A stretch of 55,849 nucleotides of DNA from Octopus sinensis (taxonomy: Eukaryota): assembly GCF_006345805.1 (NCBI RefSeq), contig NW_021833779.1:1-55849 (forward strand). The letters run 5' to 3'. The notes below the pieces were generated by a model. It searched no databases. It was not told the origin of the DNA and was given only the letters and a program-made list of their open reading frames with translations. Shown here one piece after another: positions 2,942-54,921 of this stretch (the stretch's first letter is position 1; each line of letters starts with the position of its first letter). A program made the translations under genes and the position numbers.

Positions 2942-3065
2942 GGAAAAATTTATTGGTTAAGGGAGGCAGTTAAAAAAAAAAACTAACTAAGTAGACCTTC
3001 GGCATCGCTGCCTTTTCAGTCTCCATCTCACACACGCCTCCCTACACACAACCACAGGTTAAGAC

Positions 3066-7500: not shown

Positions 7501-7519
7501 ATTTTATTATTTCAGAAAA

Positions 7520-7605
7520 CAATGACATGCCAGTATAGTCAAAAAGCACATCATTCCGAATTTTTTTCGAGTGATGCAAAAAGTATTATTCCGAAATTTT
7601 TTTGG
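7520..7605 (-). promoter_or_regulatory. H3 promoter (subtype 1) upstream of LINE A2
   Basis: Closely matches 12576-12665 upstream of the real H3 gene. Contains two CATTCCG/TATTCCG motifs. Confidence 0.85.
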
Positions 7606-7668: not shown

Positions 7669-7817
7669 GTTATAATACAGGTAAGAAAACCTGATAACAA
7701 TCCTGTTTCCCCCTCACTATTGCTTGGGACATGTTCCTGGAGGAGCCATCTAGTCTCCAGAGGATTGTGTGTTCTCAAGGTCTTGAGACGTCCAATACAC
7801 TTGAGAAAGCTCAACGA
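7669..7817 (-). pseudogene. CRE-like (RLE-type) LINE C-terminal remnant, cut by A3
   Basis: Copy of 12729-12870. Confidence 0.65.
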
Positions 7818-10800
7818 AATAATAAAATATGGCTAGAACAAAACAAACGGCTCGAAAAATCTACTGGTGCAAAAGTACCAAGGAAACAGTTGTCTGCAAA
7901 ATCTGCTCGCAAGCTGTCTGCACTAAGAAGACTATGCAGAAGTGGAGGTGTTCCCGTCTCGCTCTCCCAGAAGGACAAGACGTTTCAGTGTGCCACTACG
8001 ATGAATTGCCGGAGCCGTGGTTCACCGCCACGCGCTTCCGGCTATTCTATTGGTGTCTTTAATTTCTAGGCGAAAGCAGGAAGGAGAAGTCGAAGCCTGG
8101 ACCCTCCCAGGTGGGTTCAGCACTCACTGGAGACACTTCTTCCTCTGCTCCCCCTATGGCTGGTGTCGGGGAGCTGCAGGTGCAACTGGTTCTGATCGTT
8201 TGTTATCCACCACAACCGCACAGCATGCTGGTTCGCCACGTGTTTGCGGTTTGTCTAGTGGTACCAAACCCAGACTAGGTAAGTCAATTAATGCCAACAG
8301 GTGTCGTCTCCTGAGGCCGTCCGGTGGGTACGGCAGGAAATAAGGTTGCCCTTGAGTACGGTTGGTACACGGTGGGGAAACCCAAACGTGCGGCTGGCCG
8401 TCCAACCCCCCTAATGTTTTAGTTACTGGGTGTGTGTCCGATCAGGTGGATGCACCCCAAAGAAGACCACTGGCGCCGGGGCAAAATTACCTTCGGTGCT
8501 GTGGCACGACTTGAGGTCCTCCCTCCAAGTGGGAAGGCCTCGGTCATAAAGATCTTAGGTACGTTAGACTCTATCCAGCCTTCAAAGCTGTACAGAGTCC
8601 TGAAGAGGGAGCCTACCCAATTCCTGCTTGGGTGGGAGAAGGAGGATGACTTCTCCAACTTCAAGGGGAGCTGGAGAAGTCAAATCCGTTCGGTCCTGGC
8701 ATGCATCGCCTTGTCAGGATCGAACGTAAGTTAAGTAAGGTAAGTGTCCTCCTCCTCGGGTTCCTCGGGACTCGAGGATAATGACCTCCTAGGTCCCTGC
8801 AGCAGGAGTTAACCCAGTGCCTCTGCCATTGCACGCTTCAAGCAGGGTAATCGCCCTCTTGAAGTGTGTGAGATTACACTGGAATCTCCTGCAGAAGCTG
8901 AGCGCCTGGTACTTCTTGGTACCAGGATCGGCTACATTAGGATGAGAGCTGCCTGGCCCCGCCCGAAAGCCACCCAATGCTTTCGGTGTCAGGGGTTCGG
9001 GCACATCTCCACAAAGTGCCCGGATAAGGCGAAGTGCCTTATTTGCGGTGGGGGCATGGTCGCAAGACGTGCCCCTCACCATCCAAGGAGAGGCAGTGTG
9101 TCAACTGTGGTAAGTTGGGACACACTCAACATCATATCGTGAACGCGCGTTCCTTGGAAGGAAAAAGGGACGCCGTTCAGAGGATGTTGGCCACCACGAG
9201 TGCGGACATTCTGGTGGTCAACGAAACGAAGGTAAAGGGGGGTCCGTACGTAGTTGATGGCTACAACTGTCGTCACATACCTGGAAACAGGGGTCAATAT
9301 GTGGCACAGGAACTAGCCTCTTCTACAAGCCCTACCTTGCCTTGCAGAGTACAGGTATATGTTCATGTAGCTTGTGTGAATTCCTCCAAGTGAGAATTCG
9401 CATAGGCGAGTTAACATTTTACCTAGGTGGGATGTACTCGAAGACTTTACGGCGTGCTCCTGGCACGTACGGGAGTTTTTGAAAAGCATCCGAAGGCCAT
9501 GGTTGTTGGGGACCTGAATGCCAAGCATCAAGATCTTGGTTTCAGGTAACCAACTCGCATGGTTTGGCTCTGAAGACGCTGGTTGAAGACCTCGGGCTGG
9601 AAATCCGGACTTCGAGCGAGCCAAACCACGTCGACACGAGGGGAGGACGTGACTGGCTAGGGCTTGCTCTGGTCAGTCCCGGTCTTCTAAATGGGTTAGT
9701 AAAACTATTTTATTGTCCGATATTGGAGCGACCATCTGCCTCTATTGCACGAACTCCGTGAGCCAGTTCCTCAAAGGGTCCCAGGATACTTTGACCTCCG
9801 GGTGGGTTCCTGGCTAACCTGGAGAGTTTCATGGCCAGCAGGTTGCCCTCACTTCTGGTGGGGAATACCTGCGCCAACATACGTGAGTTGGAGGCGCTTG
9901 ATAATGGAATCAATGCTGCCCTGACTGATTACATGGGAGATAATTTCAAACAAAACTCAGTGCAGGGTCAGGCACATTCCACGCTCCCTCACCGGATCTT
10001 AAATAAAATTAGGTTCAAGCGCCGGCTATCCAGACTACGGGACAAATGCGTTTACGAGGAGAACCGTGTTTGGTTTCGTGGCTGGATTAGCCGGCTTCAG
10101 AGGGAGATCCGAAGAGAAATCCGCGAACTCGAAAGTTCGCGGTGGAGAGGGCCTGCCGAAGGGTGGACCCTCGCTTTCCGGACTTCTGGAAGCAGTTGAA
10201 GAGCCTGTCGGGGAGAAGGGGGGCTAAGTCAGTGCGCCTTAAACGCTCTGATGGAACCCTCGCTTCGGACCCGGTTGAGGTGGTTGAAATACTTTCAGCC
10301 CATCTCAATGGCATCTCGGGAACTGACGGAAGTCAGTTCGTAGAGACATCGTCCTTTGATACTGTCCAGCAGATATTGTCGTGGGACAAGCGCTGCCAGC
10401 TGGGCATATCAAGGAACGATGCAGGCGAAATTACTGAAGCGGAGATTCTGGCAGCAATCTCCCGAAGTAAGAACACCGCGGCGGGTTTGGATCGGATCCC
10501 GATGGCCATCTTTAAGAAGGCCCCGCCGCGGTTAATCACTGCACTAAAGTTTTATTTAACGGGAGCTTGCGACTTGGGATGATTCCCTCCAGGTGGAAAG
10601 TGGCTGAGGTAATCCTTATCGGAAAGCCCGGGAAGCCACATGATGTCCCCGGGGGATATAGGCCCATTTCCTTGCTCCCCGCGATATCTAAAATCCTAGA
10701 AAGAATTATGCCCAAAGGCTCCTGGAGGAGCTGATGGTTGCAGACGCCCTCCCTGAGTTCCAATGGGGCTTCAGGGAGGGCCGCTCATGCGGGGACTGCC

Positions 10801-13443: not shown

Positions 13444-13508
13444 TTATTTTGTATTTGTGTACTTAGTAACTGCCTTTGCACCTTCTGTAATAGCATGTTT
13501 TGCCAATT
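13444..13508 (-). pseudogene. H2B: H2B 3' fragment ([20 protein letters not shown]), 5' part deleted at the junction with LINE B1
   Basis: Matches 29905-29969. Short aatt microhomology with the B 3'UTR. Confidence 0.9.
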
Positions 13509-15932
13509 AATTTTGACGAGACGATTGCTTTGGGCATTCGAGCTCTTCCATGGTTCGTCCGCTTTGTCTGTCTATGAGCAGGGACACCTGCTATTCTCCA
13601 CGATCGATGAATAGGTCAGTTACTTTAGAGCGTTTCCGAAAAGTTCGGATAGAAGCCTCGATGGCCTGCCGTAGCTCTGGAGACTTGCTCTCCGCCCAGC
13701 TTGGGACAGGCTCCCATGGATTTAGCATATAGGCTAGTTTTAGAGCGTATCTCCGTATTTTTTCGCATTTTCGCAGAATTTTCTCATATTGTTTCGAGTA
13801 GAACCAAGCTTCCATACCATACAGTAGGCTGGGCAAGATTGTTGCATGGTATACAAATAGGAAGGTATTTGGATTCAAGTGCATGCTTCTTAGGAGTCGG
13901 AGAGCGGCGATGGCTTTCCCTTTTCTCCGTTTGAAATGCAAATGGTATCTCGAGTTTGCGTCGATTGTGAGCCCCAGGTAACGTATGCTCTCAGGGCGAG
14001 CAATTTCCACCAAAAGCCGGGTTTGCGATCTTGCGACTTTCTTGGGTTAATTTGGAGATATGCAGATTTGTCCATGGCCAGCGAGAGTCGCTTACCAATG
14101 CACCAATTCTTTATCTCCTCAATGTAGCCGGCAAGTCGTTTCTCCGAGGCATTGGTGTCCATCGAGGTGTCCAGAACGAGAACATCGTCCGCGTAGAGGA
14201 GTAGGGATGTCCTGGGATCGGAGGGTGTGGGGAAACTGCTCATTACCAAATTGAAAAAGATTGGGCTGAGACAGGACCCCTGTGGAACCCCCCTTCGGAG
14301 CGAAATATATCTTGAGAAGAAGCCCGACTCAGAGATAAAAGAGTAGCGATTTGAGAGGAAGCAGCGCATCCAGAGGAAGACTTCCGCTGTTGGCTCACAG
14401 AGTTCGATCCTTTCCAGGAGGTCTCTGTGCCAGACGCTGTCAAAAGCCTTTGAGATGTCCAGACTACAAGAGATAAAGTTTCTTTAAACTCCGTTGCTCT
14501 CGAGATGGTGGACTGTACCGTAATGAAACAGTCACCGCAGCTACGTCCAGAGCGAAAACCCCATTGCTGCGGGAGCAGCACTTTCTTCTCTTCGGCGTGG
14601 AAGTCGAGGCGCTTGGCCATAATTTTCTCCATCAGCCTTGAGATAGTTGGGATTAGGCTTATGGGACGGTAGCTGCTAGCGAGATTCACCGGTTTCGCAG
14701 GCTTTTTGATCATCCGGACCTCTGAGATTTTCCATTTTTCCGGCACATGGCCCCATTTGAGACTTGCCGTAAACAGATCCGCGAGGAACACATGTAGGTC
14801 TTCGGGTGCTTCCTTAAACAATCGCATCGGTATTTGTCATGGCCCGGTGCGTTGCCTTTTGACGAACGGATGGCCCAGGTCACCTCTGCAATGGTGATCG
14901 GGTGATGGTCCGGCGACAGTGGGCGCGGCAGTGGCTCCGACTCCCGGTTTTGCGACGTTTCCGGATTGGCCTCCTGGATAGTGGCCAGGTGTTCTGCAAA
15001 TATGTTTGGCATCTCTTGTGGCGAGGCGGGCATACCAGACTGGTTGCACAACCTCGGGGGTGAGGATTTTCCTTCGAGGTTAGCCACTTTGTGGAAACAG
15101 TCCCAGAAATTTGGGTTTCTGTAGTCCAGGTTTTGACAAGCCTTCTGCCATTCCTGGCTGCTTCCAGCTTTGTCGCGACGTGGATCTTATAACCAATTCC
15201 GAGATCATGTTCCTAAGTCTTCCCCTGTCAGCTGGGTCCACACAGCGTTTGAGTTTATTTCTCAGCCGCTTCCTTTCGTTGAGGATGATCTTCACTTTCA
15301 CGCTCAGAGTGGTCCTCCGTGCGCGGTCTGCACTTGACAATTCTCCGTACGACGTTAGATACTGAAGCATGAATTTGCTTAGCTTATCGCTTGCGGAGTC
15401 GATGTCGAGGGCTGAGTTATACCCAACAGGGCGACCGTTGTCGTGCAGGAATGCACTTATGGAGCTCCTGTAGTGTGGCCAGTTGATCTTTGAGAGATTG
15501 TAGTGAGAGGAAATGTGTTCTTGTCTAACAATGCTAGTGTGAATTTTGATCTCCATTGGTAGGTGGTCACTTCCGATATCGTCAAGGACTGTAGGCTTTT
15601 CCATAAGGTTAGCGACAGAGTGAGAACAGATGCACAGGCACAGGTTGTCCCCGCCAAAGGCGAGTGGTGGTTCGGGTCTTCGGATGTCCTGACGAAAACA
15701 CCAAGCTTGTCAGTGACCTTCTTCAGTGTTCGACCATCTTGGTTGGTTAACCGACATCCAAACGCCGTGTGCTTCGAGTTTAAGTCTCCGATAAGAAGGC
15801 AATGAGCTGTGCTTGAGAAGAATTCGTCAATCAATCTGATGCAGGGGGGGAGATATTTGCAATATTTCCACCGACCTTATCCAGAAGGAATCAGTTTTCA
15901 CCTCAAGAGAGAGGAATTCGCACACCGTGCTC
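13509..15932 (-). mobile_element. LINE B copy B1, 5'-truncated in the endonuclease, 3' tail deleted
   Basis: RT motifs (GVPQGSCLSP, YADD). Near-identical to B2-B4. Confidence 0.92.
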
Positions 15933-15952
15933 CAGAAGGAATTTGTATGTCC

Positions 15953-18444
15953 GAACGAACGAACGAAGAATTTTATTGTAAGAAAGAAGAGCGAGACAGA
16001 AAATTAGTGCGGAAGTAATTTTGACGAGACGATTGCTTTGGGCATTCGAGCTCTTCCATGGTTCGTCCGCTTTGTCTGTCTATGAGCAGGGACACCTGCT
16101 ATTCTCCACGATCGATGAATAGGTCAGTTACTTTAGAGCGTTTCCGAAAAGTTCGGATAGAAGCCTCGATGGCCTGCCGTAGCTCTGGAGACTTGCTCTC
16201 CGCCCAGCTGGGACAGGCTCCCATGGATTTAGCATATAGGCTAGTTTTAGAGCGTATCTCCGTATTTTTTCGCATTTTCGCAGAATTTTCTCATATTGTT
16301 TCGAGTAGAACCAAGCTTCCATACCATACAGTAGGCTGGGCAAGATTGTTGCATGGTATACAATAGGAAGGTATTTGGATTCAAGTGCATGCTTCTTAGG
16401 AGTCGGAGAGCGGCGATGGCTTTCCCTTTTCTCCGTTTGAAATGCAAATGGTATCTCGAGTTTGCGTCGATTGTGAGCCCCAGTAACGTATGCTCTCAGG
16501 GCGAGCAATTTCCACCAAAGAGCCGGGTTTGCGATCTTGCGACTTTCTTGGGTTAATTTGGAGATATGCAGATTTGTCCATGGCCAGCGAGAGTCGCTTA
16601 CCAATGCACCAATTCTTTATCTCCTCAATGTAGCCGGCAAGTCGTTTCTCCGAGGCATTGGTGTCCATCGAGGTGTCCAGAACGAGAACATCGTCCGCGT
16701 AGAGGAGTAGGGATGTCCTGGGATCGGAGGGTGTGGGGAAACTGCTCATTACCAAATTGAAAAAGATTGGGCTGAGACAGGACCCCTGTGGAACCCCCCT
16801 TCGGAGCGAAATATATCTTGAGAAGAAGCCCGACTCAGAGATAAAAGAGTAGCGATTTGAGAGGAAGCAGCGCATCCAGAGGAAGACTTCCGCTGTTGGC
16901 TCACAGAGTTCGATCCTTTCCAGGAGGTCTCTGTGCCAGACGCTGTCAAAAGCCTTTGAGATGTCCAGACATACAAGAGATAAGTTTCTTTAAACTCCGT
17001 TGCTCTCGAGATGGTGGACTGTACCGTAATGAAACAGTCACCGCAGCTACGTCCAGAGCGAAAACCCCATTGCTGCGGGAGCAGCACTTTCTTCTCTTCG
17101 GCGTGGAAGTCGAGGCGCTTGGCCATAATTTTCTCCATCAGCCTTGAGATAGTTGGGATTAGGCTTATGGGACGGTAGCTGCTAGCGAGAGATTCACCGG
17201 TTTCGCAGGCTTTTTGATCATCCGGACCTCTGAGATTTTCCATTTTTCCGGCACATGGCCCCATTTGAGACTTGCCGTAAACAGATCCGCGAGGAACACA
17301 TGTAGGTCTTCGGGTGCTTCCTTAAACAATCGCATCGGTATTTTGTCATGGCCCGGTGCGTTGCCTTTTGACGAACGGATGGCCCAGGTCACCTCTGCAA
17401 TGGTGATCGGGTGATGGTCCGGCGACAGTGGGCGCGGCAGTGGCTCCGACTCCCGGTTTTGCGACGTTTCCGGATTGGCCTCCTGGATAGTGGCCAGGTG
17501 TTCTGCAAATATGTTTGGCATCTCTTGTGGCGAGGCGGGCATACCAGACTGGTTGCACAACTCGGGGGTGAGGATTTTCCTTCGAGGTTAGCCACTTTGT
17601 GGAAACAGTCCCAGAAATTTGGGTTTCTGTAGTCCAGGTTTTGACAAGCCTTCTGCCATTTCCTGGCTGCTTCCAGCTTTGTCGCGACGTGGATCTTATA
17701 ACCAATTTCCGAGATCATGTTCCTAAGTCTTCCCCTGTCAGCTGGGTCCACACAGCGTTTGAGTTTATTTCTCAGCCGCTTCTTTCGTTGAGGATGATCT
17801 TCACTTTCACGCTCAGAGTGGTCCTCCGTGCGCGGTCTGCACTTGACAATTCTCCGTACGACGTTAGATACTGAAGCATGAATTTGCTTAGCTTATCGCT
17901 TGCGGAGTCGATGTCGAGGGCTGAGTTATACCCAACAGGGCGACCGTTGTCGTGCAGGAATGCACTTATGGAGCTCCTGTAGTGTGGCCAGTTGATCTTT
18001 GAGAGATTGTAGTGAGAGGAAATGTGTTCTTGTCTAACAATGCTAGTGTGAATTTTGATCTCCATTGGTAGGTGGTCACTTCCGATATCGTCAAGGACTG
18101 TAGGCTTTTCCATAAGGTTAGCGACAGAGTGAGAACAGATGCACAGGCACAGGTTGTCCCCGCCAAAGGGCGAGTGGTGGTTCGGGTCTTCGGATGTCCT
18201 GACGAAAACACCAAGCTTGTCAGTGACCTTCTTCAGTGTTCGACCATCTTGGTTGGTTAACCGACATCCAAACGCCGTGTGCTTCGAGTTTAAGTCTCCG
18301 ATAAGAAGGCAATGAGCTGTGCTTGAGAAGAATTCGTCAATCAATCTGATGCAGGGGGGGAGATATTTGCAATATATTCCACCGACCTTTATCCAGAAGG
18401 AATCAGTTTTCACCTCAAGAGAGAGGAATTCGCACACCGTGCTC
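15953..18444 (-). mobile_element. LINE B copy B2, 5'-truncated, AATAAA + (TTCG)n tail
   Basis: Flanked by atttgtatgtcc at 15941-15952 and 18453-18464. Confidence 0.92.
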
Positions 18445-18464
18445 CAGAAGGAATTTGTATGTCC

Positions 18465-20947
18465 GAACGAACGAACGAAGAATTTTATTGTAAGAAAGAA
18501 GAGCGAGACAGAAAATTAGTGCGGAAAGTAATTTTGACGAGACGATTGCTTTGGGCATTCGAGCTCTTCCATGGTTCGTCCGCTTTGTCTGTCTATGAGC
18601 AGGGACACCTGCTATTCTCCACGATCGATGAATAGGTCAGTTACTTTAGAGCGTTTCCGAAAAGTTCGGATAGAAGCCTCGATGGCCTGCCGTAGCTCTG
18701 GAGACTTGCTCTCCGCCCAGCTTGGGACAGGCTCCCATGGATTTAGCATATAGGCTAGTTTTAGAGCGTATCTCCGTATTTTTTCGCATTTTCGCAGAAT
18801 TTTTTCATATTGTTTCGAGTAGAACCAAGCTTCCATACCATACAGTAGGCTGGGCAAGATTGTTGCATGGTATACAAATAGGAAGGTATTTGGATTCAAG
18901 TGCATGTCTTAGGAGTCGGAGAGCGGCGATGGCTTTCCCTTTTCTCCGTTTGAAATGCAATGGTATCTCGAGTTTGCGTCGATTGTGAGCCCCAGGTAAC
19001 GTATGCTCTCAGGGCGAGCAATTTCCACCAGAGAGCCGGGTTTGCGATCTTGCGACTTTCTTGGGTTAATTTGGAGATATGCAGATTTGTCCATGGCCAG
19101 CGAGAGTCGCTTACCAATGCACCAATTCTTTATCTCCTCAATGTAGCCGGCAAGTCGTTTCTCCGAGGCATTGGTGTCCATCGAGGTGTCCAGAACGAGA
19201 ACATCGTCCGCGTAGAGGAGTAGGGATGTCCTGGGATCGGAGGGTGTGGGGAAACTGCTCATTACCAAATTGAAAAAGATTGGGCTGAGACAGGACCCCT
19301 GCGGAATCCCCCTTCGGAGCGAAATATATCTTGAGAAGAAGCCCGACTCAGAGATAAAAGAGTAGCGATTTGAGAGGAAGCAGCGCATCCAGAGGAAGAC
19401 TTCCGCTGTTGGCTCACAGAGTTCGATCCTTTCCAGGAGGTCTCTGTGCCAGACGCTGTCAAAAGCCTTTGAGATGTCCAGACATACAAGAGATAAAGTT
19501 TCTTTAAACTCCGTTGCTCGAGAGATGGTGGACTGTACCGTAATGAAACAGTCACCGCAGCTACGTCCAGAGCGAAAACCCCATTGCGCGGGAGCAGCAC
19601 TTTCTTCTCTTCGGCGTGGAAGTCGAGGCGCTTGGCCATAATTTTCTCCATCAGCCTTGAGATAGTTGGGATTAGGCTTATGGGACGGTAGCTGCTAGCG
19701 AGATTCACCGGTTTCGCAGGCTTTTTGATCATCCGGACCTCTGAGATTTTCCATTTTTTCGGCACATGGCCCCATTTGAGACTTGCCGTAAACAGATCCG
19801 CGAGGAACACATGTAGGTCTTCGGGTGCTTCCTTAAACAAATCGCATCGGTATTTTGTCATGGCCCGGTGCGTTGCCTTTTGACGAACGGATGGCCCAGT
19901 CACCTCTGCAATGGTGATCGGGTGATGGTCCGGCGACAGTGGGCGCGGCAGTGGCTCCGACTCCCGGTTTTGCGACGTTTCCGGATTGGCTCCTGGATAG
20001 TGGCCAGGTGTTCTGCAAAATATGTTTGGCATCTCTTGTGGCGAGGCGGGCATACCAGACTGGTTTGCACAACTCGGGGGTGAGGATTTTCCTTCGAGGT
20101 TAGCCACTTTGTGGAAACAGTCCCAGAAATTTGGGTTTCTGTAGTCCAGGTTTTGACAAGCCTTCTGCCATTTCCTGGCTGCTTCCAGCTTTGTCGCGAC
20201 GTGGATCTTATAACCAATTCCGAGATCATGTTCCTAAGTCTTCCCCTGTCAGCTGGGTCCACACAGCGTTTGAGTTTATTTCTCAGCCGCTTCCTTTCGT
20301 TGAGGATGATCTTCACTTTCACGCTCAGAGTGGTCCTCCGTGCGCGGTCTGCACTTGACAATTTCCGTACGACGTTAGATACTGAAGCATGAATTTGCTT
20401 AGCTATCGCTTGCGGAGTCGATGTCGAGGGCTGAGTTATACAACAGGGCGACCGTTGTCGTGCAGGAATGCACTTATGAGCTCCTGTAGTGTGGCCAGTT
20501 GATCTTTGAGAGATTGTAGTGAGAGGAAATGTGTTCTTGTCTAACAATGCTAGTGTGAATTTTGATCTCCATTGGTAGGTGGTCACTTCCGATATCGTCA
20601 AGGACTGTAGGCTTTTCCATAAGGTTAGCGACAGAGTGAGAACAGATGCACAGGCACAGGTTGTCCCCGCCAAAGGGCGAGTGGTGGTTCGGGTCTTCGG
20701 ATGTCCTGACGAAAACACCAAGCTTGTCAGTGACCTTCTTCAGTGTTCGACCATCTTGGTTGGTAACCGACATCCAAACGCCGTGTGCTTCGAGTTTAAG
20801 TCTCCGATAAGAAGGCAATGAGCTGTGCTTGAGAAGAATTCGTCAATCAATCTGATGCAGGGGGGGAGATATTTGCAATATATTCACCGACCTTTATCCG
20901 AAGGAATCAGTTTCACCTCAAGAGAGAGGAATTCGCACACCGTGCTC
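18465..20947 (-). mobile_element. LINE B copy B3, same truncation point as B1 and B2
   Basis: Flanked by atttgtatgtcc at 18453-18464 and 20956-20967. The repeat period is about 2.51 kb. Confidence 0.92.
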
Positions 20948-21114
20948 CAGAAGGAATTTGTATGTCCGAACGAACACGAAGAAGAATTTTATTGTAAGAA
21001 AGAAGAGCGAGACAGAAAATTAGTGCGGAAAGTAATTTTGACGAGACGATTGCTTGGGCATTCGAGCTCTTCCATGGTTCGTCCGCTTTGTCTGTCTATG
21101 AGCAGGGACACCTG

Positions 21115-23712
21115 CTATTCTCCACGATCGATGAATAGGTCAGTTACTTTAGAGCGTTTCCGAAAAGTTCGGATAGAAGCCTCGATGGCCTGCCGTAGCT
21201 CTGGAGACTTGCTCTCCGCCCAGCTTGGGACAGGCTCCCATGGATTTAGCATATAGGCTAGTTTTAGAGCGTATCTCCGTATTTTTTCGCATTTTCGCAG
21301 AATTTTCTCATATTGTTTCGAGTAGAACCAAGCTTCCATACCATACAGTAGGCTGGGCAAGATTGTTGCATGGTATACAAATAGGAAGGTATTTGGATTC
21401 AAGTGCATGCTTCTTAGGAGTCGGAGAGCGGCGATGGCTTTCCCTTTTCTCCGTTTGAAATGCAAATGGTATCTCGAGTTTGCGTCGATTGTGAGCCCCA
21501 GGTAACGTATGCTCTCAGGGCGAGCAATTTCCACCAGAGGCCGGGTTTGCGATCTTGCGACTTTCTTGGGGTAATTTGGAGATATGCAGATTTGTCCATG
21601 GCCAGCGAGAGTCGCTTACCAATGCACCAATTCTTATCTCCTCAATGTAGCCGGCAAGTCGTTTCTCCGAGGCATTGGTGTCCATCGAGGTGTCCAGAAC
21701 GAGAACATCGTCCGCGTAGAGGAGTAGGGATGTCCTGGGATCGGAGGGTGTGGGGAAACTGCTCATTACCAAATTGAAAAAGATTGGGCTGAGACAGGAC
21801 CCTGCGGAATCCCCCTTCGGAGCGAAATATCTTGAGAAGAAGCCCGACTCAGAGATAAAAGAGTAGCGATTTGAGAGGAAGCAGCGCATCCAGAGGAAGA
21901 CTTCCGCTGTTGGCTCACAGAGTTCGATCCTTTCCAGGAGGTCTCTGTGCCAGACGCTGTCAAAAGCCTTTGAGATGTCCAGACATACAAGAGATAAAGT
22001 TTCTTTAAACTCCGTTGCTCTCGAGATGGTGGACTGTACCGTAATGAAACAGTCACCGCAGCTACGTCCAGAGCGAAAACCCCATTGCTGCGGGAGCAGC
22101 ACTTTCTTCTCTTCGGCGTGGAAGTCGAGGCGCTTGGCCATAATTTTCTCCATCAGCCTTGAGATAGTTGGGATTAGGCTTATGGGACGGTAGCTGCTAG
22201 CGAGATTCACCGGTTTCGCAGGCTTTTTGATCATCCGGACCTCTGAGATTTTCCATTTTTCCGGCACATGGCCCCATTTGAGACTTGCCGTAAACAGATC
22301 CGCGAGGAACACATGTAGGTCTTCGGGTGCTTCCTTAAACAATCGCATCGGTATTTTGTCATGGCCCGGTGCGTTGCCTTTTGACGAACGGATGGCCCAG
22401 GTCACCTCTGCAATGGTGATCGGGTGATGGTCCGCGACAGTGGGCGCGGCAGTGGCTCCGACTCCCGGTTTTGCGACGTTTCCGGATTGGCCTCCTGGAT
22501 AGTGGCCAGGTGTTCTGCAAATATGTTTGGCATCTCTTGTGGCGAGGCGGGCATACCAGACTGGTTGCACAACCTCGGGGGTGAGGATTTTCCTTCGAGG
22601 TTAGCCACTTTGTGGAAACAGTCCCAGAAATTTGGTTTCTGTAGTCCAGGTTTTGACAAGCCTTCTGCCATTTCCTGGCTGCTTCCAGCTTTGTCGCGAC
22701 GTGGATCTTATAACCAATTCCGAGATCATGTTCCTAAGTCTTCCCCTGTCAGCTGGGTCCACACAGCGTTTGAGTTTATTTCTCAGCCGCTTCCTTTCGT
22801 TGAGGATGATCTTCACTTTCACGCTCAGAGTGGTCCTCCGTGCGCGGTCTGCACTTGACAATTCTCCGTACGACGTTAGATACTGAAGCATGAATTTGCT
22901 TAGCTTATCGCTTGCGGAGTCGATGTCGAGGGCTGAGTTATACCCAACAGGGCGACCGTTGTCGTGCAGGAATGCACTTATGGAGCTCCTGTAGTGTGGC
23001 CAGTTGATCTTTGAGAGATTGTAGTGAGAGGAAATGTGTTCTTGTCTAACAATGCTAGTGTGAATTTTGATCTCCATTGGTAGGTGGTCACTTCCGATAT
23101 CGTCAAGGACTGTAGGCTTTCCATAAGGTTAGCGACAGAGTGAGAACAGATGCACAGGCACAGGTTGTCCCCGCCAAAGGGGAGTGAGTGGTGGTTCGGG
23201 TCTTCGGATGTCCTGACGAAAACACCAAGCTTGTCAGTGACCTTCTTCAGTGTTCGACCATCTTGGTTGGTTAACCGACATCCAAACGCCGTGTGCTTCG
23301 AGTTTAAGTCTCCGATAAGAAGGCAATGAGCTGTGCTTGAGAAGAATTCGTCAATCAATCTGATGCAGGGGGGGAGATATTTGCAATATATTCCACCGAC
23401 CTTTATCCAAAAGGAATCAGTTTTCATCTCAAGAGAGAGGAATTCGCACACCGTGCTCTCGATGATGGTGAGGTTACGGATTTGGAGGTTTTCGGCGTAG
23501 AAGATGCTCGAGCCAGTCCCTGGCGTAGAGCAGCTTCCCCATTTTAGATCCTCTGACCGGTAGCCCGGAAGTTCGTACGAGTGGTTTTCTTTGAGCTTAG
23601 ACTCGTTGACGACAATAATGTCTGGATGGCCGCTGTTTACCATCTCAACGAAGTCCTGGTGCCGTCTCTTGATAGATCGGGCATTCACAGCTATGATTTT
23701 GACTGGGGCTAT
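21115..23712 (-). CDS. LINE B ORF2 (APE + RT), fragmented by indels; no AUG at the expected start
   Basis: IIAVNARS, VNESK, IGDLNSKH, GSDHLP, LDISKAFDSV, YADD. Confidence 0.88.
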
Positions 23713-28100: not shown

Positions 28101-29640
28101 CACCTGCTTTGCCAACTTTGTCGGCGAAGGCTGCACCGACCCACACGTAGCATGGCTCACAGGTTCCACTGTCTTCGCCACCCAAACGGATTTGGAAGGT
28201 TTGGCCAGTATCGCCTGCTTGCCAGGTTTTGGCGCAGGGCGCGCGACGCGACGCGGGCGACTTACTGTTGGGATTACATCCCCACCTACCTTTCGGGTTG
28301 CCTCCTTGAACTTGGGGCAACCTCTGAAGTTGGCAGTGTGTCCCAACTTACCACAGTTGACACACTGCCTCTCCTTGGATGGTGAGGGGCACGTCTTGCG
28401 ACCATGCTCCCCACCGCAAATAAGGCACTTCGCCTTATCCGGGCACTTTGTGGAGATGTGCCCGAACCCCTGACACCGAAAGCATTGGGTGGCTTTCGGG
28501 CGGGGCCAGGCAGCTCTCATCCTAATGTAGCCGATCCTGGTACCAAGAAGTACCAGGCGCTCAGCTTCTGCAGGAGATCCCAGTGTAATCTCCACCACTT
28601 CAAGAGGGCGATTACCCTGCTTGAAGCGTGCAATGGCAGAGGCACTGGGGTACTCCTGCTGCAGATGACCTAGGAGGTCATTATCCTCGAAGTCCCGAGG
28701 AACCCCGAGGAGGAGGACACTTACCTTACTTACCTTACGTTCGATCCTGACAAGGCGATGCATGCCAGGACCGAACGGATTTGACTTCTTCAGCTCCCTT
28801 TGAAGTTGGAGAAGTCATCCTCCTTCTCCCACCCAAGCAGGAATTGGGTGGGCTCCCTCTTCAGGACTCTATACAGCTTTGAAGGCTGGATAGAGTCTAA
28901 CGTACCTAAGATCTTTATGACCGAGGCCTTCCCACTTGTAGGGAGGACCTCAAGTCGTGCCACAGCACCGAAGGTAATTCTGCCCCCGGCGCCAGTGGTC
29001 TTCTTTGGGTGTGCATCCGCCTGATCGGACACACACCCAGTACCTAAAACATTAGGGGGGTTGGACGGCCAGCCGCACGTTTGGGTTTCCCCACCGTGTA
29101 CCAACCGTCCTCAAGGGCAACCTTATTCCTGCCGTACCCACCGGGACGGCCTCAGGAGACGACACCTGTTGGCATTAATTGACTTACCTAGGCTGGGTTT
29201 GGTACCACTAGACAAACGCAAACACGTGGCGAACCAGCATGCTGTGCGGTTGTGGTGGATACCAAACGATCAGAAACCAGTTGCACCTGCAGCTCCCCCG
29301 ACACCAGCCATAGGGGGAGCAGAGGAAGAAGTGTCTCCAGTGAGTGCTGAACCCACCTGGGAGGGTCCAGGCTTCGACTTTCCTTCCTGCTTTCGCCTAG
29401 AAAATTAAAGACACCACTAGAATAGCCGGAAGCGCGTGGCGGTGAACCACGGCTCCGGCAATCATCGTAGTGGCACATGAACCGTCTTGTCCTTCTGGGA
29501 GAGCGAGGCGGGGACACCTCCACTTCTGCATAGTCTTCTAGTGCAGACAGCTTGCGAGCAGATTTTGCAGACAACTGTTCCTTGGTACTTTTGCACCAGT
29601 AGATTTTCGAGCCGTTTGTTTTGTTCTAGCCATATTTATT
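25107..29640 (-). mobile_element. LINE A copy A4, full-length, H3-head ATG at 29633
   Basis: Collinear with A2. Only about 7 nt of H3 leader is present, followed by H2B 3'-flank sequence. Confidence 0.93.
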
Positions 29641-29904
29641 GTTTTGCGAGAGAACGATCAGATCCCGGTCAAAAGAATAGCTTGCAAGTTGTCGCGCATG
29701 ATTGTAACCGAGATCCTTGTTTCAGCCAAGAAGATTCGCGTGCATACATGTTTTCCGAGCTATAAGGAGCCCGACATCTTTTAAGAACTGGATGTTGAGA
29801 AGGCTGCGGAGGTCTCGAATGGCAAAGGAACAATTACTAGTTAGATTTCGATTGTGTTGCAATAGTTATTTAGAGAACAAATGAATAAAAATATTTTTAA
29901 AGTG

Positions 29905-36419: not shown

Positions 36420-36505
36420 AATGATTGTGAAACAGATTGCGAGCAGATTGTTTCCTTGGAATTTTGCTCCAGTAGATTTTTGAGCAGTTGTTGTGTTCTA
36501 GCCAT
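36420..36505 (-). pseudogene. H3: Decayed H3 N-terminal fragment
   Basis: Copy of 54833-54921. Confidence 0.8.
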
Positions 36506-40286: not shown

Positions 40287-40695
40287 TTTGTTTTTTCACC
40301 TCGAATTCTTCTCGATAAATGCATATCGTTTGGCATTATAGTTACTCTTTTTCCGTGAATTGCGCACAAATTACTATCTTCAAAAATTCCAACTAGGTAA
40401 CTCTCTGCCGCTTCTTGGAGAGCGACAATCGCTGACGATTGAAAACGCAAATCAGTTTTGATAAACTGAGCGTTTCTCTCACGAGTCTCTGGAATGGAAG
40501 TTTTCGTAGTAACAAATCAGTGCTCTTTTGATATCGTCTAATTTCTCGCATTGCAACAACTCCAGGTCGAAATCGATGAGGTTTCTTTACCCCTCCAAAT
40601 TGTGAAACAGACTTGCGAGCAGATTTTGCAGACAATTGTTTCCTTGGAACTTTTGCTCCAGTAGATTTTCGAGCAGTTTGTTTAGTTCTAGCCAT
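40287..40695 (-). CDS. H3: Histone H3 (subtype 2; indels), separated from its promoter by LINE C
   Basis: Collinear with 51456-51866. Confidence 0.88.
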
Positions 40696-40885
40696 ATTTT
40701 TTTTATTTCAGACAGGACAGTTTCAGGAATGGAATGGAAAGTTTTATTGTAAGTAAAACAGAGACTAAGTAAAAAGGTTGGACGAGGTTAAACGAGACGA
40801 CTGCGAAGACAGTCGAGCTCTGCCGAGATTCGTCCTAAGGGAATATATGAGCCGGGTTTTTGAAGAGTCACTCTCTGATTGAATT

Positions 40886-43503
40886 TCAGACGCGATCCAC
40901 GAAAAGATCGGTCACCTGAGACCGCCGACGAAAAGTTCGGATGGAATCAAGGATGACTTTCTCGATTAGTGGAGATTTCTCCTCTGCCCAGTTGGGTAGC
41001 GGGGCGCGTAGATCCAATCTGTACGCTAGCTTTAACGCATAGCGACGGATCTTCTCACATTTTTTCAATATTTTTCCGAATTGGTTTGAATAGTGCCACG
41101 CCTCCTCCATCCCATACAAGAGACTTGGGAGAATCGTCGCGCGCGAAGACAAACAGAAAAGTGTCGGGGGCCAAATGCATACCTCAGGAAGCGAAGGCCG
41201 CAACGGCCTTTTTCCTTTTTTGGGTGATGTGCAGTAAGTACTCCGAGTTAGAGTCTACCGTCAAGCCCATATAGCGAATGTGGCTCGGGCGGGGAAGTCT
41301 TCTGAGAATCTCAGGCTCTTGCCTCGATTTGCGCCGTGAGTTAATTTCAATTTCAAGGTACGCCGACTTGTCCATAGCAATGGATAGTTGTTTACACCCG
41401 ACACCAGGTCTCTATCATTCCGATGTAGCTGGAAAGACGGTGCTCCGAGAGGCGGGGCTTTTTGAAATATCCATAATGAGGACGTCATCAGCGTACAAGA
41501 GGAAAGTTGTCCGCGGATTGGGGAAGGAGGGGAAGCTGCTCATCACAAGGTTGAACAGCAGCGGGCTGAGACTGGATCCCTGCGGACACCCCTTCGGAGA
41601 TGTATATCTCTGGAGTGGAAGCCCGACTGGGACACAAAGGAGATACGGTTAGAAAGAAAGCAATTCAGCCAGAGAAATGCCTCTCTCGTTGGCTCACAAC
41701 TGCGAACCCTGTCCAATAGGTCTGGGTGGTACACGCTGTCGAATGCTTTAGAGATGTCAAGGCAGATGCAAGATAAAGTTTCGTTGAACTCCATTGCTTC
41801 AAAGCCATCGATTGGAGAATCAGAAAACAATCGGCGCAGCTGCGCCCCGAGCGGAAGCCCCACTGCTGGGGCAGAAGCACGCATTTCTGCTCAGCGAAGG
41901 AGTCGAAGCGTTTGGTCATAATTTTTTCCATAAGCCTCGAGATCGTTGGTATTAGACTGATGGGTCGATAGCTGCTGGCAAGGTTAGCTGTTTTTGCAGG
42001 TTTCTTGATCATCCGTCGTTTTCGGCGACTTTCCAGGCACTTGGAACGTGGCTCCAGCGAAGACTAGCCGAGAAGAGGCGTGCCAAAATCAGACAGTTCC
42101 GGAGGGCCTTCTTTGAACATTTTCATTGGTAGCATGTCATGCCCCGGTGCGTTGTCCCTCGCCGAGAGGATGGCCCAGGTCACCTCAGTCAGCGCGGTGA
42201 TTGGGTGATGATCAACAGATAGGGAGTCTGCTTGGTCTATAGGACTGGCATGTGAGTTTCCCCAGCGATCCTCATGGTCCGGCAGAGGACGGTCCAGGTG
42301 ATCAGCAAATATGTTGGGGATTTCCTCCACCGACGCAGGCATTCCAGCTGAGTTCGATAATTCTGGTGCCGGAGAGTTCACGAGATGATTAGAGAGTCTG
42401 TTGTAGGCTATCCAGAAGTTTGGGTTCCTGTGATTAAGACCAGAGCAGCCTTCTTCCACATCCTCTCAAGATCTTTCTTTCTTGTGAGTTCAATTTTGTG
42501 GTTGAGCAGAGAGATTTCCGACCTTAGGGTACCTTGGTCCGTTGGGTCGGCACAGCGTTTGAGCTTGTTTCGCAGGCGCTTCTTTTCGCCCAGAAGTTGG
42601 AGAAGTTTGGGTTTGGATGATGTGTAATGCCCTTGCTAGTTGGGCGCACCCTCCTAGCGTGGGCTTCAAGTAGAGTCGCATGAAGTCCGTCAATTCGGCG
42701 CCCGAGTTGTCGATGTCCGAGGTAGATTGATAGCTGCCTGGGCGTACGTTGTTGCGAAAGAACAAGTTCAGAGCATAACGGTAGTGCGCCCAGTTGATGT
42801 TCGAAAGGGTGTATCGTGGTGGGCAACGGATTTGGGTGTCTACCGAGACGTGGACACAGACCTGCATTGGCAGGTGGTCGCTCCCAATATCGTCGAGTAC
42901 TATTGGTTCTCCCATAAGATTCGCGACTGATTGAGAGCTCAGTGCTACGCAAAGGTTGTCCCAGCCGAATGGGGAGCGGTGGTTCCGGGCTTTCGAGGTG
43001 CGGACACAGACGTCTAGCCTACCTGCCGCTCTTTCAAGTAACCGGCCCGCCCGATTGGTCACGCGACAACCAAATGCCGTGTGTTTGGAGTTTAGATCAC
43101 CGATGAGGAGGCAATGATTTGAGCTGACAAAGAAGTCTTCGATAAGACCGATGCATGGAGCAAGGTTTTTGCAATATATTCCGCCCACTTTTAACCAAAA
43201 GCGCTGGGTTTTAATCTCTAGCGAGATAAATTCGCATAGGTTCCGTTCGATAGTCTTGAGGTTGCGTGTCTTGAGATTTTGCAGGTAGTAGATAGTCGTC
43301 CCAGTCCCAGGCGTAGAGTTATTTCTCCATTTCAGGTCAAGGGAGCAGTATCCTGGCAATTCGAAGCATTGACCTTCTTTCAGCTTAGACTCGTTGACGA
43401 CGATCAAGTCAGGATGGCCGCTGTTTACCATCTCAACGAAGTCGAGGTGCCGTCTCTTGACAGATCGGGCATTCACAGCGATGATTTTTAGTGGCGTGGT
43501 CAT
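40886..43503 (-). CDS. LINE C ORF2 (APE + RT), many frameshifts
   Basis: MTTPLKIIAVNARS, IGDLNSKH, GSDHLP, YRPISLIP, LDISKAFDSV. Confidence 0.85.
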
Positions 43504-44874
43504 TTTGCTGGCGAGCTCCTCTCTGATAGGAGCTCTTCTAGCTTCTTGGGTTTGACTCCCAGTTTTCAGCTGCGTCGACACAGCGTTGGTAAAATTCCAA
43601 CAGAGCATCCTTGTTGTGAGAGTCTACCCTTCGCCTGCGTTTTGGCCTGCTGAGTACCGTTCCTTATTGGGCTGACGGGCCTCGGTTTCACAGCCTCGCG
43701 ACAGGGGCCTGCATGCTCTGCGCACCAACCTCAACGACTTGCGTCGTCTGGGTATGGGCGTCCGCCACACACGGGTTATTAGCGGCCGTACTTTCCAGAT
43801 AGGCGTGACCGGCTTAGCTTTTACCATTACCATGCGGGTTGGGTTAGGAGACCGAGGCATTGCTTCTGCGCGGGCGGCCCATTTAGCTGCTGTTGCAGCT
43901 TTGGCCGTCGGGCATCCACCATACGAAGCGAGGTGGCCGGGGCGGTCACAATTGATACAATGCCGACCGCAGGGCTCCACTAGACTTTGTTTGCTGCCTG
44001 GGCATTCCCTTCGGTCGTGGTCCTTGCCGCAGTATAAGACCGGGCTTTTTCTTGACAGTTACGGGACAGGTGTCCGAATCTCTGACAATGGAAACATCGG
44101 ACGACAGGAGGTCTGAACCATTCACAGGTGATAAGGCAGAAACCAGCTGTGATTCCGGTGCGGATCAAAGAAGTAGCTTCAGCTCGTGAGTCAAGCGTCA
44201 GCTTAGCAACTGGGATGTTGAGACCATCTCGCGTGAATCGCTCGAGAACGAACACCGAACTGAGGGTTTCCTTCAGGTGCAGCTCTAGGTCCCGATTGGA
44301 GATCCATCGCGGAATCCCCTTTAGGACTAGTGCTGACTTTTGCGGAGTAACTAAGGCAAGTTTATGGCCGCTTCGCCAAACGGGTTCAATCTTGCAAGCT
44401 CAGCCGAGAATGCATCAGCATCTCCGGGGCTCCTGAACTCAAGAGTGAAGGAGCCTGAGCGTTGTAATGTAATCCGTGCTTTGGAGGCAGTTGGCGACTT
44501 GGATAGGAGGTAAACCTCTTGATCTTTCCAAGTGCCGGGTTATTAATGCTCAGAGTGAATGTGAGGCCTGAGCTGTTAAGGTCAGACCTCGGGGGTTCGG
44601 TGGATTCTTCAACTTTGGAGGGCTCTCCTTGAACCATCTGGACCGTCGGAGCACCTCCACTTCGACATAGATTTCTTATTGCAGACAATTGTTCGGTGGA
44701 ATCTTCTTCAACTTTGATGGAAACATGTTGAACCGTCTGATCCGTCAGAACACTCCCACTTCGACATAGGTTTCTAATTGTAGACAATTGTTTCCTTGGA
44801 ACTTTTGTTCTTTTTTGTCCTTCAGTGTTTGCTTTTGCGTTTTCTTTTGAGTTTTTCTTAGGTGCCATTGACAT
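43500..44874 (-). CDS. LINE C ORF1 with an H2B/H3/H4 mosaic N-terminus (frameshifted downstream)
   Basis: MSMAPKK...[24 protein letters not shown]...QLSAIRNLCRSGG runs in frame into LSINNPALGKIKRF, which is shared with B ORF1. CCHC knuckles follow. Confidence 0.83.
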
Positions 44875-44935
44875 TGACAAAAATTCCTGATTATCAAAAA
44901 AAAAAAATTTATTTCAGATTTTTTTCAGATTTCAG

Positions 44936-46118: not shown

Positions 46119-46206
46119 CAAATTGTGAAACAGAATTGCGAGCAGATTGTTTCCTTGGAAATTTTGCTCCAGTAGATTTTTGAGCAGTTTGTTGTGTTCT
46201 AGCCAT
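46119..46206 (-). pseudogene. H3: Decayed H3 N-terminal fragment
   Basis: Copy of 54833-54921. Confidence 0.8.
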
Positions 46207-46303: not shown

Positions 46304-47759
46304 AATGAATGAATGAAGTTTATTGTAATTAACAGAGAAAGAGAAAGTGACAGGAATTAAGGACGGTGATAGGACGAGACTGATGCAAAGGCAACTGAAC
46401 TCTTCTGAGCTTGCGTCCAATTCATCTGTCGTGAGCCAGAGTTAATGGTGGCTATGTTGCTGAATTGCTCCCTTCTAGCAGGAGCTCTTGCAGCATATCC
46501 ATATCCACTCCAAGTAGGGTCAGGGCTCCTACACAACAGCGGAAGCATTCCAGTTGGGAATCTCTGTTGTGTAGGTCCTGATCCGAGTGGGGACCTCTTT
46601 GTGACAAAGCTTTGTCACTGTGGGTTTTTCTCCTCTTACGAGGGACAGCCGAGCGGACCACTTCTGAGTTATGGCACTCATTAGTGGTTGTCTTCGAGTT
46701 TGTGAGTGTGCTGGGGGCCGGCGACGTCTGAGTAGAGACATCGACTTTGGACGGACTTCGGGGAGCCGCTTTTGTCCAGACTGATTTTATCGGTTCGGCT
46801 TTCACCCAGCGTACTGGGCTTTTTGTCTGTGGGCTCTTCGCAGCCCTTGAGGCTGCTGTTGCTGCTTTGGCAGATGGACATCCACCGTAGCACGCCAAGT
46901 GCCCAGTGTTCTTGCAATTAATGCAAGTTTTTGCAGCTGGGACATTCGGTTTTGGCTTGGAACTCGGGCAGTTTTGGTGCCTGTGTTCTTTACCGCAGAG
47001 GAGACAACGGAGTTTTTCGGAGCATCTGTAGGACGTATGTCCAAACTGATTGCAACGGAAGCATCTCGTTGCTGAGGGCTTGTGCCATTCGCAGCGGATA
47101 TGGCTGAAGCCCGCAGTTATTCCAAAGCGGATGAGGGTGTTGGCCTCGGCTCTGGAATCCAGCGTGAGTCTGCCGATAGGCATGTCGGTTCCATTGCGAG
47201 AGAATCTTTCGAACTTGAAGTCCGATTCTAGACTTTCTCTCAAGTGGAGGTTAAGATCCTCTGTCGAGATCCAATGAGGGATTCCTTTAAGGACCAAGAC
47301 TGAGGCCTTCTCAGCTATTGAGGCAAGTTTATGGCCGCCTTCGCCAAACATATTCGATTGAGTCAACTCTGCTTTGAACGCAGCAGCATCCTCTGGCGAA
47401 CTGAATTTTAGAATGAAGGTGCCGGACTTCTGTAAGGTTATCCGGGCTTTCGAAGCAGTTGGAGACTTGGATAGGAGGTTAAACCTCTTAATCTTTCCAA
47501 GTGCCGAGTTTTCGATACTCAGAGAATATGTGAGGTTCGAGCTGTTACCCTCAGTTGTCGTCTGATGCAATTGGGTCTCACTGTGTTTTTGAGCCACAGT
47601 AGGGTTCGGAGGGGTCGGATGTTCGGTGGGATATTCAGGTTCGCAAAAGGGCTGTGGCTTGGCCGCTGTTCGTCTTTGAACTTTGGAGCAAGCTTTGATT
47701 GATGCGAGATTTTGTTTATTCTTGACCATTTTTTCTTTATTTTCCTTTACCATGCAACT
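46304..47759 (-). mobile_element. Non-autonomous ORF1-only LINE (B') with a 7-bp TSD and a (TTCA)n tail
   Basis: TSD gaaagtg at 46297-46303 and 47760-47766. The empty site is visible at about 36596 and 55012. ORF1 is followed directly by a B/C-like 3'UTR, AATAAA and the tail. Confidence 0.92.
46452..47753 (-). CDS. Intact B' ORF1, 433 aa from the ATG at 47753, three CCHC knuckles
   Basis: Uninterrupted ORF. The longer start in the ORF track lies outside the TSD, in the promoter. Confidence 0.9.
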   Translation of the reverse strand: MVKENKEKMVKNKQNLASIKACSKVQRRTAAKPQPFCEPEYPTEHPTPPNPTVAQKHSETQLHQTTTEGNSSNLTYSLSIENSALGKIKRFNLLSKSPTASKARITLQKSGTFILKFSSPEDAAAFKAELTQSNMFGEGGHKLASIAEKASVLVLKGIPHWISTEDLNLHLRESLESDFKFERFSRNGTDMPIGRLTLDSRAEANTLIRFGITAGFSHIRCEWHKPSATRCFRCNQFGHTSYRCSEKLRCLLCGKEHRHQNCPSSKPKPNVPAAKTCINCKNTGHLACYGGCPSAKAATAASRAAKSPQTKSPVRWVKAEPIKSVWTKAAPRSPSKVDVSTQTSPAPSTLTNSKTTTNECHNSEVVRSAVPRKRRKTHSDKALSQRGPHSDQDLHNRDSQLECFRCCVGALTLLGVDMDMLQELLLEGSNSAT

Positions 47760-51226: not shown

Positions 51227-51455
51227 TAGCTTGTTCATGGTTATAGGTTTTTGTTTGTTTTCCTGCTATATATTAATTATCCAAGAAATCCGTATTAAAC
51301 AATTTTTAATTATATATTTTCTAAAATACACAACTAGTATCCTCTTTTTATCTAAACGAGGTGCAACATTACATTTTCTACAAACTTCAACAAAAAATTT
51401 AAAAATTGTCTCAGAATTATCCAAACAATAAATCATTTTTTATTTAAAATACAAA

Positions 51456-51866
51456 TTATGTTTTTTCACCTCGAATTCTTCTCGATAAATGCATATCGTT
51501 TGGCATTATAGTTACTCTTTTTCCGTGAATTGCGCACAAATTACTATCTTCAAAAATTCCAACTAGGTAACTCTCTGCCGCTTCTTGGAGAGCGACAATC
51601 GCTGACGATTGAAAACGCAAATCAGTTTTGATAAACTGAGCGGTTTCTCTCACGAGTCTCTGGAATGGAAGTTTTCGTAGTAACAAATCAGTGCTCTTTT
51701 GATATCGTCTAATTTCTCGCATTGCAACAACTCCAGGTCGAAATCGATGAGGTTTCTTTACCCCTCCAAATTGTGAAACAGACTTGCGAGCAGATTTTGC
51801 AGACAATTGTTTCCTTGGAACTTTTGCTCCAGTAGATTTTCGAGCAGTTTGTTTAGTTCTAGCCAT
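51456..51866 (-). CDS. H3: Histone H3 (intact, 136 aa)
   Basis: [12 protein letters not shown]...KKPHRFRPG...LPFQRLVRE...[10 protein letters not shown]. Confidence 0.98.
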
Positions 51867-52130
51867 ATTTTTTTTATTTCAGACAGGACAGTTTCAGGCT
51901 AGTTATTTTTGTTTTATATAGTTAAACAACATTATTCCGAATTTTTTCGAGAAAAAGTATCATTCCGAAAATTTTTTGCTCATCATTTTTAAAATTAAAA
52001 AATTAAATATTTTTAAAATAATATTTTATCAGCACCATCAAATAATTGTAACTATTGCTTAAATTGATGAATTTTTCGAGATTACAGACTAAATTACTAG
52101 TGAACTAATTAAAGAAAAAACAGAGAACGA

Positions 52131-54832: not shown

Positions 54833-54921
54833 GCAAATTGTGAAACAGAATTGCGAGCAGATTGTTTCCTTGGAAATTTTGCTCCAGTAGATTTTTGAGC
54901 AGTTTGTTGTGTTCTAGCCAT
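54833..54921 (-). pseudogene. H3: Decayed H3 N-terminal fragment (about first 33 codons) with an H3-type leader
   Basis: atggctagaacacaacaaactgctc...ccaaggaaacaatctgctcgc...gtttcacaatttg, with a deletion and frameshifts. Confidence 0.82.

Follow-up and report, generated by a model that had tools for sequence, protein, structure and literature searches.

Histone-derived sequence at the ORF1 start of related LINE families with a preference for histone gene starts on a contig labelled Octopus sinensis

The window analysed here, the whole 55,849-nt stretch of contig NW_021833779.1 (assembly GCF_006345805.1, labelled Octopus sinensis), carries H4, H2A, H3 and H2B repeats of two nucleotide subtypes together with a remnant of Tc1 type; three related families of LINEs, referred to as A, B and C, are also present. 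The family C copy lies on the minus strand, and its 3′ pentamer-repeat tail (40696–40745) is joined at −32 to the leader of an H3 subtype-2 gene, 43 nt behind the promoter motif; this downstream H3 gene (40289–40695, minus strand) is the target gene. ORF2 (40886–43503, minus strand) encodes an APE endonuclease and a reverse transcriptase, and is broken by indels in the window and open for 869 aa in another copy (L119), which is itself a clean C insertion into an H3 leader. ORF1 (43500–44868, minus strand) carries three Cys/His knuckles and measures 457 aa in intact copies, being open over this length in four of nine copies (L002 and L006–L008, the last three having one common junction). The assembly contains many indels, and those in the window copy break ORF1: a 1-nt deletion near 44511, without support in the short-read contigs, leads to a stop at 160 aa. 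A single-sequence fold of C ORF1 was uninformative (mean pLDDT 37).

The N-terminus of C ORF1 is a mosaic of pieces from H2B, H3 and, twice, H4, as determined by comparing local matches to six histone references with their leaders against 1000 dinucleotide shuffles. The true start of the family is a decayed H2B-derived head (44809–44869, minus strand), in which H2B codons 1–4 and approximately 4–12 stand around an 8-codon insert. This head is followed by an H3 subtype-2 piece, KVPRKQLS (44782–44807, minus strand), matching in 26/26 nt with a score of 56 against a null maximum of 29 (p=0.001). Module 1 (44729–44781, minus strand) consists of an H4 helix-1 piece (44780–44748, 27/33 nt, p=0.001) and 10 nt in common with family A ORF1 (44738–44729), and module 2 (44649–44693, minus strand) joins H3 QLSA, within a 15-nt exact H3 match, to a further H4 helix-1 piece (44682–44649, 29/34 nt, p=0.001) through a 4-nt shared overlap at the alanine codon. 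All 1000 shuffles thus scored below the H3 and H4 pieces (p≤0.001), and a control stretch of the C ORF1 core gave zero match to the histone references (p≥0.28).

An earlier note made from the sequence alone had described the exact 26-nt H3 match and the 27/33-nt H4 piece, and both hold under this test. It had also seen a repeat of the QLSA-H4 module about 110 nt further on; the repeat is real, with a spacing of 99 nt. Its H2B pieces are ordered, in frame and placed at the first codon of the element (11 nt exact from the start codon, and 14 nt exact to subtype-1 H2B), but as free local matches they are weak (p=0.020–0.026, and 0.010 in a second test, all uncorrected), and the H2B head is convincing mainly because of its position. 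The proposed H4-like leader in front of it did not stand: the match at 44886–44870 has p=0.017, uncorrected over six references, and this form occurs in one of nine C 5′ ends. An H4 leader as family C sequence was rejected, as seven different fills precede the same start codon; in the window copy the corresponding interval (44870–44934, minus strand) is a copy-specific 5′ junction fill of short repeats and leader-like bits which is absent from the sister units. Related fragments in some other C fills may represent leader bits passed on for one generation.

A genome search returned 18 matches, nine of which cover the C 5′ end, at nine loci on six contigs. All nine begin with the same start codon and the mosaic, in frame with the ORF1 core as the earlier note had read it, with a deletion inside module 2 in one; upstream of the start, seven distinct junctions were found among the nine copies. 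A 396-nt short-read contig covers 44512–44907 with one difference and, as it probably derives from the source sample, rules out long-read error only.

The H3/H4 module is common to families A and C. In both, the H3-to-H4 join is the same and the same R40S change relative to H4 is present, and the 10 nt after C module 1 match A ORF1 (p=0.002) and not H4 (p=0.50); for module 2 the same test gave p=0.08. Independent captures of H3 and H4 by C are rejected in view of the join, the R40S change and the 10 nt in common with A. The ORF2s of A and C are only 32% identical and B, the sister of C, is without the module, a distribution which indicates lateral exchange of one module. From these sequence comparisons, C most likely received the H3/H4 module from an A-lineage element rather than from H4 mRNA, with A to C as the inferred direction. 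C keeps I34 where A has a leucine, and the module donor would therefore predate present A. Family A contributed 8 of the 18 matches in the genome search, and in all eight of them H2B codons 1–25 stand before the module.

On family A the head consists of the H3 leader, H3 codons 1–28, then LSA and the H4 helix-1 module (2800–2941, minus strand; also 7375–7520, minus, 7817–7950, plus, and 29515–29645, minus), and the A body, with ORF1 and ORF2, is represented at 2960–7416 (minus strand). Among 30 loci fetched from 38 matches of a further search, the head is H3 codons 1–28 in 29 and H2B in one. Twenty of the 29 H3 heads are identical over 84/84 nt to one present subtype, two match in 83/84 and seven carry indels; both H3 subtypes occur on both A body types, which differ at ~10% of synonymous sites, and the H2B heads on A likewise include both subtypes. 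Many copies have unrelated flanks upstream of the head, which has been carried to non-histone sites. In-frame fusions of longer histone segments were also found: H4 1–52 on A in three copies with two different 5′ junctions in one contig (C8677), and H2B 1–52 on B with the core promoter attached and promoter DNA from about −55. In another contig (C13428) an out-of-frame H2B leader plus six codons is stacked before an H3 head. In family B, ORF1 starts with a decayed H3 leader and codons 1–18, the old leader now being read as codons (47674–47753, minus strand; p=0.001 and p=0.003; the H3 match of the copy at 24990 has p=0.05), and this unrefreshed head shows one synonymous and four non-synonymous changes. 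Overall, heads of H3 and H2B origin are found on both A and B, and those of H4 origin on A. That they are simple target-site remnants of insertions inside coding sequence is rejected, as the 3′ ends join leaders and heads occur at non-histone sites.

Sister families E, F and G likewise begin close to their ATG, but no histone head was detected in them (all p≥0.06), nor any histone-like stretch in 150 ORF1 relatives, many of them without a true N-terminus (best E=0.14). The assembly contains many further families of the clade, E, F and G among them, and in several of these ORF1 is open (~140 matches per search). ORF1-only non-autonomous derivatives also exist, namely a 1.44-kb B-type element (46310–47752) and A ORF1 with a different 3′ end and an H3 or H2B head (L128, L135, L138, L141).

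The position of the insertions was analyzed relative to a promoter motif shared by the histone genes, TTCGGAAT, which lies at −75 of H3 subtype 2 (51934–51941, minus strand). By script, 16 of 24 picked histone 3′ junctions, covering five promoter types, fall 42–45 nt behind the start of this motif; two further ones fit by hand, in H4 at 42 (variant motif) and in H2B at 44 (after a 1-nt indel), four are off position (L158, L189, L197, L206) and two have no entry (L184, L207). The insertion sites in the H2A, H2B-1, H2B-2, H3-1, H3-2 and H4 leaders have no sequence in common. They lie ~22 nt behind a TATA-like word, from which we infer the transcription start as the insertion position. Read by eye, histone-leader 3′ junctions number 7/30 for family A (best 30 of 165 candidates), 9/30 for family C, three of them antisense (best 30 of 126 candidates), and 10/28 with a tail for family B (from the best 30 of 42 candidates), counts which tandem amplification inflates. 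At the same best-scoring loci, a leader stub only, before the next element or other sequence, was seen in a further six (A), four (C) and six (B) cases, and the remaining 3′ ends are dispersed or lie in other repeats. Since most 3′ ends are not at histone leaders, the targeting is a preference.

The last 24 nt of A match the H2B subtype-1 stretch from the TATA-like box to the leader in 23/24 positions (p=0.0005), also at a non-histone site. This 3′ end is a T-run plus C-run and not poly(A), and copies the H2B subtype-1 core promoter (2960–2985; L127, L130, L133, L140). Several further arrangements were observed. A tandem array at 13505–23458 is built of 2.5-kb 5′-truncated B copies with an H2B leader stub between them, and the repeat unit includes a shortened, diverged H3 start (46119–46206, 36424–36505, 54834–54921) that has a promoter motif of its own and is itself a target. 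Antisense insertions at the H2B start region occur (L034, L041, L043), and elements of different families also meet tail to tail at a single site (L035/L150, L036/L143, L169). Moreover, insertions of B, C and E recur at a distance of 100–130 nt from the termini of three further repeats that contain hairpins and TATA-like words (L021, L022, L033, L038, L046, L182, L183, L185–L187, L190); within DNA elements, these may form a second class of promoter targets.

Full-length A copies show duplicated flanks in 7 of 14 cases, a partial duplication in one and none within the examined flanks in six. The duplications measure ~290, 350, 575, 900, 1230, 1280 and 1440 bp (1230 and 1280 inferred from partial flanks) and, in copies with complete flanks, run from the 3′ junction to the 5′ junction; one head (L122/L071) is inside the 900-bp target duplication. 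Two full-length C copies were tested for duplication, and L109 has none. The window C copy stands between two copies of ~5.5 kb of the histone repeat, with a histone promoter absent at its 5′ end, an array context that fits a long duplication and a 1.7-kb deletion equally.

Families A, B and C are APE-type non-LTR retrotransposons. The open ORF2s of A and C in L119 match Pfam Exo_endo_phos_2 and RVT_1, although the C endonuclease scores slightly below the curated cut-off in L119 and exceeds it in another scan; ORF1 gives zf-CCHC matches (C under cut-off) with Cys/His columns that are invariant in A, B and C, and all three families have a fixed 3′ end with a simple-repeat tail and a variable 5′ junction. 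No conserved 5′ UTR was found in the three families: in C the start of ORF1 coincides with the family 5′ end, in A nothing but a remnant of a histone leader precedes ORF1, and in B no more than ~20 nt. The reverse transcriptase tree comprised 59 homologues, most of them unnamed; in it A, B and C group as a separate clade (support 0.978) without a named reference, and their nearest relatives in this domain are 29–39% identical. Outside the same label, relatives in the true frame were none better than E=1e-29, save repeat-inflated arthropod proteins of ~30–33% identity. By architecture the three families appear Jockey-like, but the tree, without a named reference in their clade, gives them no such placement; the Atlas cluster lead for these LINEs is 'nucleic-acid-binding protein from transposon X-element' (score 0.91).

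Several known systems share parts of this behaviour. TRE5 and TRE3 of Dictyostelium and Ty3 of yeast are position-specific tRNA-gene retrotransposons that insert at a fixed distance from a promoter element and are tethered to a host factor. A, B and C resemble them in the fixed distance from a promoter element without a common target sequence, but their targets are polymerase II rather than polymerase III genes, and the tRNA-gene elements are not known to take up host coding sequence. The 5′ tags of HeT-A are layers from successive promoter sites, non-coding and from the element's own 3′ end; layers likewise accumulate here, whereas they are coding and come from host histone genes. Viral histone mimics such as influenza NS1 carry short convergent histone-tail motifs, while the tail motif on the parasite protein described here is captured host DNA. 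Tx1 elements have reportedly been found in histone 2B genes, which, if so, would lower the novelty of the target and not that of the heads.

As in Jockey/I-group LINEs, A, B and C combine a Gag-like ORF1 with Cys/His knuckles, an ORF2 of ~870 aa with APE and RT domains and no detected RNase H, and a simple-repeat tail; unlike the Drosophila members of that group, which have an internal promoter in the 5′ UTR (PMC2861651), they are without a conserved 5′ UTR. The closest likeness in the joining step is to R1A of the Drosophila melanogaster group, an APE-type LINE in a multicopy gene whose target sequence at the transcript 5′ end anneals and travels to non-target sites, with junction microhomology and untemplated fill (PMC2718515). 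R1A uses one fixed 28S sequence, takes along 6–27 nt of non-coding target from upstream and leaves duplications no longer than 17 bp (PMC2718515). For A, B and C, by contrast, the target is defined by position, in four different protein genes; what they carry is a translated piece of 75–160 nt from downstream of the insertion site, and their duplications extend to 1.4 kb. Compared with sequence-specific LINEs (R1, R2, NeSL type), they are without one conserved target sequence and have target-derived 5′ sequence at non-target sites; like R2, NeSL, Utopia and Keno (PMC4640811), they comprise several families in one multicopy gene family, with tandem arrays and variable strictness. The targets named for these LINEs are rRNA, spliced leader, tRNA, snRNA, transposons, microsatellites and telomeres, and the word 'histone' is absent from the text (PMC4640811). 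In the literature covered, mainly the main texts of open-access papers, no report of histone-start-targeting or histone-headed LINEs was found.

The probable course is an insertion at a histone start in which the 5′ side is joined further downstream, so that histone codons are fused to ORF1; the head would then become heritable through transcription from the histone promoter. The elements involved are one APE-RT LINE clade without a conserved 5′ UTR, in which ORF1 begins at the 5′ end, and the preferred site ~43 nt behind the histone promoter motif would be the transcription start, reached by way of a protein tether. The 5′ join would often lie far downstream of the first nick, duplicating 0.3–1.4 kb of target, as seen for A. 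When this join falls in histone coding sequence at microhomology, promoter, leader and N-terminal codons would come to stand before ORF1, a step of which first-generation examples were seen. In-frame fusions would then be transcribed from the histone promoter, and their progeny would take the head to new sites, where carried heads are observed. Later captures would cap older heads, and annealing to the target would re-template heads on current histone genes; a precedent for the annealing is R1A, in which target sequence at the transcript 5′ end gives precise joins (PMC2718515). The C stack may accordingly have grown from an old H4 piece through an H3 cap in the A lineage, recombination into C, duplication and an H2B cap. 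The inner H3 piece of C is less decayed than the outer H2B piece, which is not predicted by outermost-is-youngest layering. Also counting against this course are the 3′ ends away from histone leaders, the junctions off position, the A copies without a duplication, and families E, F and G with their lack of a detected histone head. The head would serve mainly as start codon, leader and homology arm, with any protein function secondary.

The three main readings weighed here, namely fusion at the target, template switching and histone mimicry, are not fully exclusive. It is conceivable, if on the whole unlikely, that the reverse transcriptase leaves the element RNA where it shares a short match with the plentiful histone mRNA and continues on the latter as far as the cap, so that heads are captured and refreshed from RNA. 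The joins with 3–5 nt overlaps and the perfect identity of heads to current subtypes would fit such switching, as would the heads at non-histone sites, which end at or inside the leader and never further upstream, although second-generation copies are equally expected to give leader-limited heads. No histone stem-loop was detected at the 3′ ends of the window histone genes (e.g. 51400–51470), the 3′ ends of four genes fold no better than shuffles, and an Rfam scan of 30000–55849 gave zero matches; the clustered histone genes may thus be polyadenylated and their mRNAs ordinary poly(A) templates. Template switching is, however, at odds with the promoter DNA from about −55 in the H2B 1–52/B fusion, with the heads that are seamless with a native promoter and match the subtype of that promoter (L058, L061, L071), and with the head inside a 900-bp target duplication. 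The long target duplications and the promoter on the H2B-B fusion favour DNA-level fusion at the target over mRNA capture. Of the earlier view that the element serially captured histone mRNA fragments and kept them as coding sequence, serial capture and the in-frame arrangement in all nine copies are borne out, whereas the H4 leader, a separate H3 and H4 capture and the mRNA route are not. To explain the histone matches by chance resemblance within A-rich sequence, or by chimeras arising when long reads of a collapsed histone array were assembled, is scarcely tenable and largely refuted: the H2B and leader matches are weak alone and the assembly indels are many, but the significance of the H3 and H4 pieces, the same start at nine loci with seven different flanks and the short-read contig spanning the mosaic all speak against it.

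Mimicry would make the heads selected: the H3 tail and H4 helix 1 would recruit chaperones or importins (RbAp46/48-type, ASF1, NASP), guiding the particle to histone loci or shielding it from silencing. As the principal explanation this seems distinctly improbable. In its favour, the 14-codon A module differs between A sub-lineages by four synonymous and no replacement changes, against 15 and 30 in codons 42–215 (Fisher p=0.018, or p=0.045 when a second copy is used), and the module was passed to C and duplicated there. The ratio in the A ORF1 core is near 0.16, in a comparison where indels inflated the core counts in two of five copies. In H4, R35/R39 and R36/R40 contact RbAp48 (PMC4139204); of these contact positions A keeps R35, R36 and R39, while R40 is lost in all modules and C, which drifts, retains R35 and R39 only. 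The A changes are few and from a single lineage pair, B hits the same sites with a decayed head and without the module, and H3, H2B and H4 can replace one another as the outer head. In the C modules, the C H2B piece and the B head most changes are replacements, and the keeping of the C pieces as coding sequence, as the earlier note read it, does not amount to selection. Selection for mimicry thus finds weak support, in A only, and judged from the residues retained mimicry is plausible in A and doubtful in C. A wider combination, which we put forward tentatively and would sooner doubt than accept, is that a promoter-less LINE clade docks at histone starts via a promoter-bound factor, that the heads double as a 5′ homology arm that can be renewed and as functional mimics engaging host chaperones (in A, the full H3 1–28 tail with the conserved H4 helix-1 motif), and that the 3′ end restores the TATA-to-start stretch of the displaced gene.

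If fusion at the target is the true course, histone gene starts would be added to the position-defined targets of LINEs, and the intermediates within one genome would illustrate how a transposon gains host coding sequence via its own integration scar. The target duplications of up to 1.4 kb bear on 5′ end joining and second-strand priming in LINEs. An ORF1 that begins with an exact H3 tail opens histone mimicry by transposons to direct testing, and B, in which the targeting is present and the intact head is lacking, offers a natural control.

Concerning the organism, the window H4 is only ~79% identical to typical H4s, identical proteins stand under an octopus label in public sets, and no host placement was obtained by an H4 homologue search. 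Contigs sharing these LINEs contain genes with, read by eye, ~8 introns of 24–33 nt and, in six sampled stretches, have a GC content of 32–38%. Of 12 listed sequencing runs only four, all from one sample, contain the stretch, and no RNA run is listed among those that contain it. A dicyemid genome, from an octopus host, has a mean intron length of 38 bp, a GC content of 36.7% and many LINE ORF2 copies (PMC6736024). The short introns, GC content, LINE ORF2 copies and run distribution suggest that the DNA probably stems from a co-assembled dicyemid-like parasite. A pair of runs under the same label, guessed to be of RNA, each yielded a single AT-rich match of 34 nt, which has no bearing on expression. 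The public gene model P0020, which joins the end of A ORF2 to H4, is an annotation artefact, and a divergent H4 very similar to the window H4 (92%) lies on a 2.3-kb contig with an ant label (P0035).
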